The notes under the pieces: model-generated
What the model saw: the letters and a program-made list of their open reading frames with translations, nothing else
Databases searched by the model: none
Told to the model about the DNA's origin: nothing
Part shown: positions 5,613 through 7,574 of the stretch, one piece after another
Numbering within the stretch: position 1 is the stretch's first letter
How the letters are laid out: each line of letters starts with the position of its first letter
Assembly: GCF_003334305.1 (NCBI RefSeq)
Contig: NZ_QOWS01000046.1
Length of the DNA: 7,574 nt
Reading direction: 5' to 3' (one strand)
Source: Escherichia coli
Lineage (GTDB): Bacteria; Pseudomonadota; Gammaproteobacteria; Enterobacterales; Enterobacteriaceae
Translations under genes and position numbers: made by a program

Positions 5613-6636
5613 AACCCAGTACCTCTACTTTTACATGGTGTTCCTGCAGCCAGGCAATGGCGGCTTGCGTATCTTGTTGTGTGCCGTGCATTTCAGTCAG
5701 CATGATGCCGAACTTAACGCCACCGGCGTAATCCATCTGCGCGCTAATAATGTTGTTGTTGACGTTGAAACGACGCGCGGTTTCAGAAAGCAGCGGGGCA
5801 TCGACCGATTGACCGGTAAACTCCAGGCGCAACATCGGCACGCAGTCAGTAAATGGCTCCGCTTGCAGACGTTCCTGGTAATCTTCCGGGATATCCAGAT
5901 GCAGGGTCGACTGAATAAACTTCTGCGCCAGCGGCGTTTTCGGATGCGAGAACACTTCACTTACCGTGTCCTGCTCGATCAGTTCGCCATTGCTGATGAC
6001 CGCCACGCAATCACAAATACGCTTCACAACGTCCATTTCGTGGGTGATCAACAGAATCGTCAAACCCAGACGGCGGTTAATGTCTTTCAGCAGTTCGAGA
6101 ATAGAACGTGTCGTTGCCGGGTCCAGCGCGCTGGTGGCTTCATCACACAGCAATACTTTGGGATTGCTGGCTAATGCACGGGCAATCGCCACACGTTGTT
6201 TCTGCCCACCGGAAAGATTCGACGGGTAGCTATCATGCTTATCGCCAAGACCAACCAATGACAGCAATTCCGTCACGCGACGTTTGATCTCGTCTTTCGG
6301 TGTGTTGTCCAGCTCCAGCGGCAGAGCCACGTTGCCAAAAACAGTACGCGAAGAGAGCAGGTTAAAATGCTGGAAAATCATACCAATCTGGCGGCGAGCT
6401 TTGGTCAACTCGGATTCTGACAGCGTGGTCAGTTCCTGGCCATCGACCAGCACGCTACCCTCGGTTGGGCGCTCCAGCAGGTTTACACAACGTATAAGCG
6501 TACTCTTACCCGCGCCTGAGGCACCGATAACGCCATAAATTTGTCCAGCTGGCACATGCAGGCTGACGTTGTTCAACGCCTGGATGGTGCGGGTGCCCTG
6601 GTGGAACACTTTGGTGATATTCGAAAGTTTTATCAT
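5605..6636 (-). CDS. metN: D-methionine ABC transporter ATP-binding protein MetN, 343 aa
   Basis: Walker [13 protein letters not shown] signature LSGGQKQR, Walker [12 protein letters not shown], and a C-terminal regulatory extension. Recognised as MetN with matching length. Confidence 0.96.
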
Positions 6637-6710
6637 TGATTATTTATTATCGTCATTAAGTTAGTCGTGGCATTTCGAATGCCTGAAACGGGCAACGCCG
6701 TCAATGAAAT

Positions 6711-6742
6711 GGATGTTAAGGCATCCAGACGTCTAAATCAAT
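6711..6742. promoter_or_regulatory. MetJ operator (met box) region in the metN promoter
   Basis: Perfect met-box octamer AGACGTCT at 6727-6734, flanked in 8-bp register by degenerate copies (aggcatcc, 5/8; ggatgtta, 4/8). It lies about 90 nt upstream of the metN start codon. Confidence 0.55.
6713..6741 (-). promoter_or_regulatory. Candidate sigma70 promoter of metNIQ
   Basis: On the minus strand: -35 TTGATT (6736-6741), 17-bp spacer, -10 TAACAT (6713-6718). The perfect met box lies inside the spacer, consistent with repression by occlusion. Confidence 0.4.
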
Positions 6743-6823
6743 CAGGTTTATGCGAAGAGCACTTTCTTGCAGGTCGAAACATGCGATACTAGCGTCACAT
6801 GCCTTATTAAGGAGCTATAAAAG

Positions 6824-7396
6824 GTGGCGAAGAGCGTACCCGCAATTTTTCTTGACCGTGATGGCACCATTAATGTCGAGCACGGCTATGTCCATGAGAT
6901 CGACAACTTTGAATTTATCGACGGTGTTATTGACGCCATGCGCGAGCTAAAAAAAATGGGCTTTGCGCTGGTGGTAGTAACCAACCAGTCTGGCATTGCT
7001 CGCGGTAAATTTACTGAAGCGCAGTTTGAAACGCTGACCGAGTGGATGGACTGGTCGCTGGCGGACCGCGATGTCGATCTGGATGGCATCTATTATTGCC
7101 CGCATCATCCGCAGGGTAGTGTTGAAGAGTTTCGCCAGGTCTGCGACTGCCGCAAACCACATCCGGGGATGCTTTTGTCAGCACGCGATTATTTGCATAT
7201 TGATATGGCCGCTTCTTATATGGTGGGCGATAAATTAGAAGATATGCAGGCAGCGGCTGCGGCGAACGTGGGAACAAAAGTGCTGGTGCGTACGGGTAAA
7301 CCTATTACGCCTGAAGCAGAAAACGCGGCGGATTGGGTGTTAAATAGCCTGGCAGACCTGCCGCAAGCGATAAAAAAGCAGCAAAAACCGGCATAA
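6824..7396 (+). CDS. gmhB: D-glycero-beta-D-manno-heptose-1,7-bisphosphate 7-phosphatase GmhB (HAD superfamily), GTG start
   Basis: ORF (M)[24 protein letters not shown]... with HAD motif I DRDGT. RBS AGGAG at 6810-6814, 9 nt upstream of GTG at 6824. Stop TAA at 7394-7396. Recognised as GmhB/YaeD. Confidence 0.93.
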
Positions 7397-7397
7397 T

Positions 7398-7412
7398 GAT
7401 TAAAAGATGAGC
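7398..7412. promoter_or_regulatory. Candidate Fis site (site I, centred near -71 of rRNA P1)
   Basis: gattaaaagatgagc: 15-bp G...C-bounded element with an A/T-rich core, centred at 7405, about 71 bp upstream of the predicted P1 start. Confidence 0.4.
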
Positions 7413-7437
7413 AATTGAAATAAAAATGCATTTTTCC
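7411..7437 (+). promoter_or_regulatory. UP element of rRNA operon P1 promoter
   Basis: A/T-rich tract gcaattgaaataaaaatgcatttttcc immediately upstream of the -35 hexamer (-40 to -60 region), as in rrn P1 promoters. Confidence 0.6.
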
Positions 7438-7439
7438 AC

Positions 7440-7476
7440 TTGTCTTCCTGAGACGACTCCCTATAATGCGCCTCCA
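7440..7476 (+). promoter_or_regulatory. rRNA operon P1 promoter (rrnH-type): -35, -10, GC-rich discriminator and start site
   Basis: -35 TTGTCT (7440-7445), 16-bp spacer, -10 TATAAT (7462-7467), discriminator GCGCCTCC, predicted +1 near 7476. Near-identical in layout to rrnB P1 (TTGTCA-16-TATAAT-GCGCC). Confidence 0.85.
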
Positions 7477-7549
7477 TCGACACGGCGGATGTGAATCACT
7501 TCACACAAACAGCCGGTTCGGTTGAAGAGAAAAATCCTGAAATTCAGGG

Positions 7550-7574
7550 TTGACTCTGAAAGAGGAAAGCGTAA
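7550..7574 (+). promoter_or_regulatory. rRNA operon P2 promoter, truncated by the window edge
   Basis: ttgactctgaaagaggaaagcgtaa: -35 TTGACT (7550-7555), 16-bp spacer, and the window ends on TAA, the first 3 nt of the expected -10 TAATAT. Lies about 75-100 nt downstream of P1, as in rrn operons. Confidence 0.7.

Follow-up and report, generated by a model that had tools for sequence, protein, structure and literature searches.

The question raised by this locus is whether the upstream activating region of an rRNA promoter extends into the coding sequence of the preceding gene and, if so, which codons of that gene are held in place by the promoter. In the case studied here, the gene is gmhB, which encodes an enzyme of LPS core synthesis, and the promoter is P1 of the rRNA operon that follows it on the same strand. 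We consider it highly probable that the DNA around the gmhB stop codon is the rrnH P1 upstream activating region, with an UP element and with Fis sites at -71, -91, and -134, that the upstream sites lie in gmhB, and that some nucleotides are in dual use.

Locus and sequences compared

The window (the whole 7,574-nucleotide stretch of DNA that was analyzed) covers the Escherichia coli metQIN–gmhB–rrnH locus. Over bases 6700-7574, the sequence is the same as in E. coli strain A7 (100% identity) and is matched in all 5,426 complete E. coli genomes. The RefSeq annotation of strain A7 gives the gene order as metQ, metI, and metN (minus strand), gmhB (plus strand), 16S rRNA, tRNA-Ile, tRNA-Ala, and 23S rRNA, with 363 nt between the gmhB stop and the 16S start in that identical sequence. 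The K-12 counterpart of this 16S gene is rrsH, and the operon is rrnH. The upstream gene is placed as follows, based on the open reading frame list, NCBIfam, and the strain A7 RefSeq annotation.

6824..7396, plus strand: gmhB coding sequence, GTG start, 190 codons, TAA at 7394-7396

Its product scores above the curated cut-offs of both TIGR00213 (331.9 bits; cut-off, 149.6) and NF006506 (283.6 bits; cut-off, 178), the basis of the GmhB assignment. The gene ends at -80 relative to the P1 start (+1), where a TAA at codon 191 leaves a protein of 190 amino acids, and other Escherichia species likewise stop at 190. In K-12, a T-to-C change at -82 turns this TAA into CAA, and the next TGA ends the gene, with the stop at -77 and a protein of 191 amino acids. 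A MetJ box would be expected for the metNIQ operon, and AGACGTCT, at 6727-6734 in the divergent metN/gmhB intergenic region, agrees with the MetJ-box consensus at every base.

For the comparison across species, a GmhB protein search of species-representative genomes supplied the 80 closest Enterobacteriaceae loci among the matches listed. All 80 have the same downstream P1 DNA, and with the window and K-12 they make up a set of 82 sequences; these are phylogenetically related, and fractions of species quoted from the set overstate independence. Changes per column were counted as Fitch steps on a neighbor-joining tree. The contig ends within 1.4 kb past gmhB in 78 of the 80 loci, as is typical of a collapsed rRNA repeat, and all seven loci that are long enough have the 16S gene at the same distance past gmhB. 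One locus in the set (L087), labeled 'Chryseobacterium sp. 18061', has an enterobacterial gmhB-rrn junction and a GmhB that is 87% identical to that of E. coli; this assembly is probably contaminated or mislabeled.

The rrnH P1 core and UP element

A preliminary description of this DNA had placed an rrn P1 core shortly after the gmhB stop, and its position and layout are confirmed. The combination TTGTCT-16-TATAAT is the sole 10-of-12 promoter match within 6600-7574, and the core aligns base for base with those of rrnB, rrnA, rrnC, and rrnG P1. We infer by homology to the rrnB P1 core that +1 is A7476.

7416..7436, plus strand: UP element (-60 to -40), TGAAATAAAAATGCATTTTTC, A/T-rich, at the position of the rrnB P1 UP element and conserved in the 82 sequences; its function is taken from the rrn P1 literature
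7440..7445, plus strand: rrnH P1 -35 hexamer, TTGTCT, of which TTG.C is invariant or nearly so in the 82 sequences
7462..7467, plus strand: rrnH P1 -10 hexamer, TATAAT, after a 16-nt spacer, invariant in the 74 of 74 sequences that reach -10
7468..7476, plus strand: GC-rich discriminator, GCGCCTCC (7468-7475), and start A7476, from the rrnB P1 core alignment

The gmhB stop and the -35 hexamer are separated by 43 nt. The UP element had been described as beginning 15 nt past the stop; by the rrnB definition, the distance is 20 nt. An rrn P1 promoter characteristically precedes its 16S gene by about 290 nt and has a second promoter, P2, some 120 nt farther on; in K-12, the 16S gene begins at +287 of P1. 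One reporter study found the rrnH promoter region (P1 and P2 together) to be the weakest of the seven (PMC4696680).

Predicted Fis sites upstream of P1

The published Fis motif has a G and a C at ±7 that are contacted by Fis Arg85, an A/T center, and a Y-R step at ±3-4 in about 80% of half-sites (PMC4784862). The matrix used here is approximate and symmetric and is our own, modeled after published logos and incorporating these three features. As a control, it was applied to the rrnB P1 upstream region, where the footprinted sites at -71, -102, and -143 came out as the top three. The matrix scan proposed in the preliminary description, made with a matrix thus validated, returned the following matches, none of which is assigned to a strand.

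7398..7412: Fis site I, GATTAAAAGATGAGC, center 7405 (-71), 9.0 bits, second best of about 7,560 window positions
7378..7392: predicted Fis site II, GCAGCAAAAACCGGC, center -91, 4.6 bits (99.46th percentile), in the variable C-terminal tail of gmhB
7335..7349: predicted Fis site III, GGGTGTTAAATAGCC, center -134, 6.7 bits (99.88th percentile), over gmhB codons Trp171-Leu176
7391..7405: weaker Fis-like match, center -78, 7.0 bits, without the C at +7, overlapping site I at a 7-bp offset and spanning the gmhB stop

The match at -78 is probably not a separate site, as it lacks the C at +7 and is absent from the conserved columns.

Site I is the 15-mer singled out previously. Its center lies at exactly -71, and it starts at the second base after the gmhB stop. 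The proposal that this site straddles the stop holds for K-12, where the G and A of the TGA belong to both stop and site, and fails for the window, where the site begins just past the stop. The upstream sites had been expected inside gmhB at about -102 and -143. Their location in the gene is borne out and the distances are not: we place them at -91 and -134, exact positions that are inferred from the sequence. At the rrnB spacing, matches at -104 and -101 are weak in E. coli (4.2 and 2.3 bits) and lack conservation (cross-species mean, 1.05; 12% of species), and these candidates were rejected. The window has nothing convincing at -102 and no matrix score at -143. Counted from site I, the predicted sites II and III lie 20 and 63 bp farther upstream, or roughly two and six turns of the helix, within or at the end of gmhB. 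As gmhB ends at -80, site II would occupy the last codons and stop region and site III codons 171-176.

The degenerate Fis consensus GNNYAWWWWWTRNNC (at most one mismatch) is not enriched over the whole window, with 4 matches found and 5.5 expected; two of the four are upstream of P1, at -71 and -134. Because these counts show no excess, the argument is built on position and conservation. Given about 7e-4 matches per position, a match located exactly at -71 is not chance. The -71 match also occurs in K-12 rrnH and in five of the six other K-12 rrn P1 promoters, rrnE being the exception.

The base composition of the three sites follows the motif to different degrees. G at -7 and C at +7 are present in all three window sites, and the centers (-2 to +2) read AAAAG in site I, AAAAA in site II, and TTAAA in site III, all of them conserved bases. 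Y-R steps at ±3-4 are found in both halves of site I (TA, TG) and of site III (TG, TA), and site III also has the T at ±8 of the published motif (PMC4784862). Site II is the counterpoint, as its window score is only 4.6 and neither of its halves has a Y-R step there (GC, CC); the right half reads TA in most species. Compared by eye, site II (GCAGCAAAAACCGGC) and rrnB P1 site II (GCTCGAAAAACTGGC) are identical at 11 of 15 bases.

Conservation of spacing and sites

The distance from gmhB to the promoter is rigid. In every locus that reaches far enough, the P1 -10 lies exactly 638 nt after the gmhB start, and the 82 collinear sequences contain zero indels over these approximately 640 nt. On this fixed DNA frame, the annotated end of GmhB varies by point change from 185 to 191 amino acids, with the stop found after 185, 186, 187, 188, or 190 codons across genera. 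A stop that moves on indel-free DNA is what a promoter spacing constraint would produce.

The alignment of gmhB 3' ends across species, a further check that had been proposed, singles out the same three positions as the matrix scan. Ranked by mean Fis score, the top three of the 640 columns between the gmhB start and -40 are -71, -91, and -134, and these are the only columns at which at least 80% of species are above the window 99th percentile. The share of the 82 sequences above that percentile is 100% for site I, 93% for site II (cross-species mean score, 6.2), and 87% for site III.

Within the sites, conservation is concentrated on particular bases. In site I, G-78, A-74 to A-72, T-68, and C-64 are invariant, and -77, -76, and -69 change by 17-18 steps. 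In site II, all 82 sequences have G-98 and C-84, and -96 to -94 and -89 to -85 take 7-13 steps. In site III, the base at -141 is G in 72 of 82 sequences and that at -127 is C in 82 of 82. The stop codon falls inside site II in most genera, and the amino acids around this site are not conserved. Third codon positions in the body of gmhB typically take 15-30 Fitch steps, compared to which the intergenic stretch from -78 to -31 is far more conserved.

Constraint on gmhB codons

Codon choice at two lysines near the end of the gene provides one line of evidence for dual use.

7373..7378, plus strand: Lys184-Lys185 codons, AAA AAG, an A-tract ending in the invariant G-98

In the codon for Lys185, G-98 occupies the third position, and wherever Lys is present at this column in the 82 sequences, the codon is AAG. 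The third positions of Lys184 and Lys185 take 1 and 0 Fitch steps, respectively, versus a mean of 12 for two-fold codons. Among 57 conserved two-fold codons, Lys185 ranks first in lack of synonymous change and Lys184 joint second, tied with Tyr132. Lys185 is the only Lys column fixed as AAG; the other conserved Lys columns prefer AAA and take 7-19 steps.

A recoding test addresses site III. The observed Fis score was compared to scores obtained by re-encoding the GmhB amino acids of each species with the pooled codon usage of the gene. By this measure, -134 comes first of 515 columns, with an excess of +5.2 bits (column mean, 0.05; standard deviation, 1.0; z about 5), and in 88% of species the observed score is reached by fewer than 5% of the recodings. 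The rank of 1 of 515 was repeated with a plain count of consensus matches.

Bulk synonymous rates show a dip in the same region. Fitch steps are 0.58-0.67 of the gene mean from -143 to -101 and are normal or above average upstream of -146, with Mann-Whitney U p values of about 0.005-0.01 for most combinations of region and codon class and of 0.10-0.16 for two of the six. We do not regard this dip as decisive, because codons 124-140, which have no conserved Fis match, show a dip about as deep. Codons 161-169 change at or above the gene average. The preliminary description had extended the regulatory constraint over the C-terminal codons of gmhB in general. The constraint linked to the promoter is real in these alignments and is patchy: it covers codons ~171-176, codons 184-185, and the tail, and does not cover all of the last 30.

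Two other stretches of the gene change little at synonymous positions. At codons 127-132 (7202-7219; GAT ATG GCx GCT TCT TAT), Asp127 and Tyr132 take 1-2 steps, and no conserved Fis-like match was found in this patch. At codons 1-20 (6824-6883), which adjoin the divergent metN control region, synonymous change is 0.3-0.6 of the gene mean; low synonymous change near a start codon is the usual pattern.

Comparison with known rRNA and tRNA promoters

The closest counterpart is rrnB P1. The two cores share TTGTCx, a 16-nt spacer, TATAAT, a GCGCC discriminator, and a start 9 nt past the -10; upstream, both have an A/T-rich stretch from -60 to -40, a Fis site at -71, and two further sites in helical phase. 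The gene context is also alike, as the codirectional murI ends at -82 (-80 for gmhB in the window), no terminator intervenes, and the upstream sites are in coding sequence. Sites II and III of rrnB P1 have been placed in murI, and one tyrT Fis site has been placed in the purU reading frame (bioRxiv 10.1101/2024.03.27.586983). rrnB P1 differs in the positions of sites II and III (-102 and -143, versus the predicted -91 and -134 on rrnH), in its -35 (TTGTCA, versus TTGTCT), and in the sequence of the UP element.

The rrnA P1/hemG and tyrT/purU junctions likewise combine a Fis-activated stable-RNA promoter with a codirectional gene that ends just upstream of site I (the hemG stop is at -86), and differ in the identity of the upstream gene and in site positions. 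rrnG P1 also has a codirectional upstream gene, clpB, and a Fis-like site at -71. In contrast to gmhB, clpB ends as far upstream as -152, and a clear terminator (stem-loop and T-run) lies between it and the Fis sites; thus, neither coding overlap nor the question of read-through arises at rrnG.

Proposed mechanism and alternative explanations

If rrnH P1 works as rrnB P1 does, the UP element at -60 to -40 would be bound by the C-terminal domains of the RNA polymerase alpha subunits, and a Fis dimer at -71 would activate by contacting alpha. Two further Fis dimers would bind at -91 and -134 on the same helical face. With sites II and III within gmhB, the nucleotides there would serve two purposes, and purifying selection on the promoter would limit synonymous change and forbid indels at the 3' end of the gene. 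PMC4696680 attributes to Hirvonen 2001 both Fis binding and activation on all seven rrn P1 promoters and the proposal of three to five Fis sites per promoter, and it states that the number for rrnH was confirmed by gel shift.

It is unlikely that only site I is a Fis site, with the conserved bases farther upstream reflecting phased A-tract curvature or the binding of H-NS or Lrp and the matches at -91 and -134 arising as by-products. The best-conserved bases do include A-tracts at about -101, -91, -72, and -53 that are roughly in helical phase, H-NS has been reported to bind the promoter regions of rrnA, rrnB, and rrnH (PMC4696680), and site II is a weak match in the window, all of which favor this explanation. 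However, the invariant bases include the exact G and C at ±7 that are contacted by Fis Arg85 (PMC4784862), which neither curvature nor H-NS would need, and the combination of fixed ±7, free ±5-6, and an A/T core is the Fis logo pattern at all three sites. The two readings are also not mutually exclusive, as A-tract curvature and H-NS binding may use the same bases as the Fis sites. Far less probable again is that chance alone, given a degenerate consensus and A/T-rich DNA, accounts for the Fis-like 15-mers; we give this almost no weight. The lack of consensus enrichment in the window would fit such an explanation, as would the several equally good matrix scores elsewhere in it. Against this stand the exact -71 position shared with the other K-12 rrn P1 promoters and the conservation of three sites in the 82 sequences, as no other of the 640 columns behaves likewise.

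The low synonymous change at the gmhB 3' end could also reflect constraints of the gene itself (codon bias, mRNA stability, or termination context) that are independent of the promoter. In its favor, codons 124-140 and the 5' end of gmhB have dips similar to that near site III, which indicates that such dips arise for other reasons. We nevertheless judge this explanation very unlikely, because the codon fixed at Lys185 is a minority codon at every other gmhB Lys column and because the recoding test controls for both protein sequence and gene-wide codon use. Furthermore, conservation continues undiminished past the stop, and the same bases are kept, untranslated, in genera whose stop lies 2-5 codons earlier. 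The tail of the protein is not conserved in amino acid sequence, yet its DNA has no indels in the 82 sequences.

The Fis-dependent reading of the region is thus preferred, and it is not new: work on rrnH P1, its UP element, and its Fis sites dates back to 2001, when Fis sites were mapped on all seven rrn P1 promoters, and the layout is known for rRNA promoters. What the present comparison adds is modest, namely, a quantified case of dual-use DNA, in which a few codons of a gene for an LPS core enzyme would be fixed family-wide by the neighboring rRNA promoter and the gmhB stop would slide along a DNA frame held by that promoter. One practical consequence is that 'silent' recoding or deletion of the gmhB 3' end, as in Keio-type deletions or codon optimization, is likely to alter rrnH expression.

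Transcription from gmhB toward rrnH

The preliminary description had noted no terminator between gmhB and P1, and we agree. A pattern scan found no terminator-like site on the plus strand between the gmhB stop and P1, and the RNA from 7340 to 7476 folds no better than shuffled sequences (z = 0.35). Site I and the UP element take up the 43 nt from the stop to the -35, leaving no room for an intrinsic terminator. Transcription of gmhB would therefore be ended by Rho or by the occupied promoter, or would continue into rrnH. In this respect, rrnH resembles most of its kind: among the four codirectional gene-to-rrn junctions of K-12, only clpB-rrnG has an intrinsic terminator before P1, and murI, hemG, and gmhB, with stops at -82, -86, and -77, have none.

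A bolder interpretation assigns a function to the very lack of a terminator, which has been retained in some 80 species. Bound Fis and RNA polymerase would then act as a roadblock that ends gmhB transcription, which would couple gmhB 3'-end formation, and possibly expression, to the growth-rate control of rRNA synthesis. On this interpretation, the length of the GmhB tail, itself a passenger, would be set by where a stop fits in Fis site II. We think it quite unlikely that the junction works in this way.

The window differs from K-12 at several bases of the promoter region. It has AA for GG at -63/-62 (7413-7414), exactly where Fis site I meets the UP element; 79 of the 82 sequences have G there. 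It also has A for G at -38 (7438) and A for C at -23 (7453). Farther downstream, P2 has a -35 of TTGACT at 7550-7555. Directly upstream of the P2 -35, the stretch 7536-7555 is a perfect palindrome, CCTGAAATTCAGG, which was flagged on the minus strand in the terminator scan.
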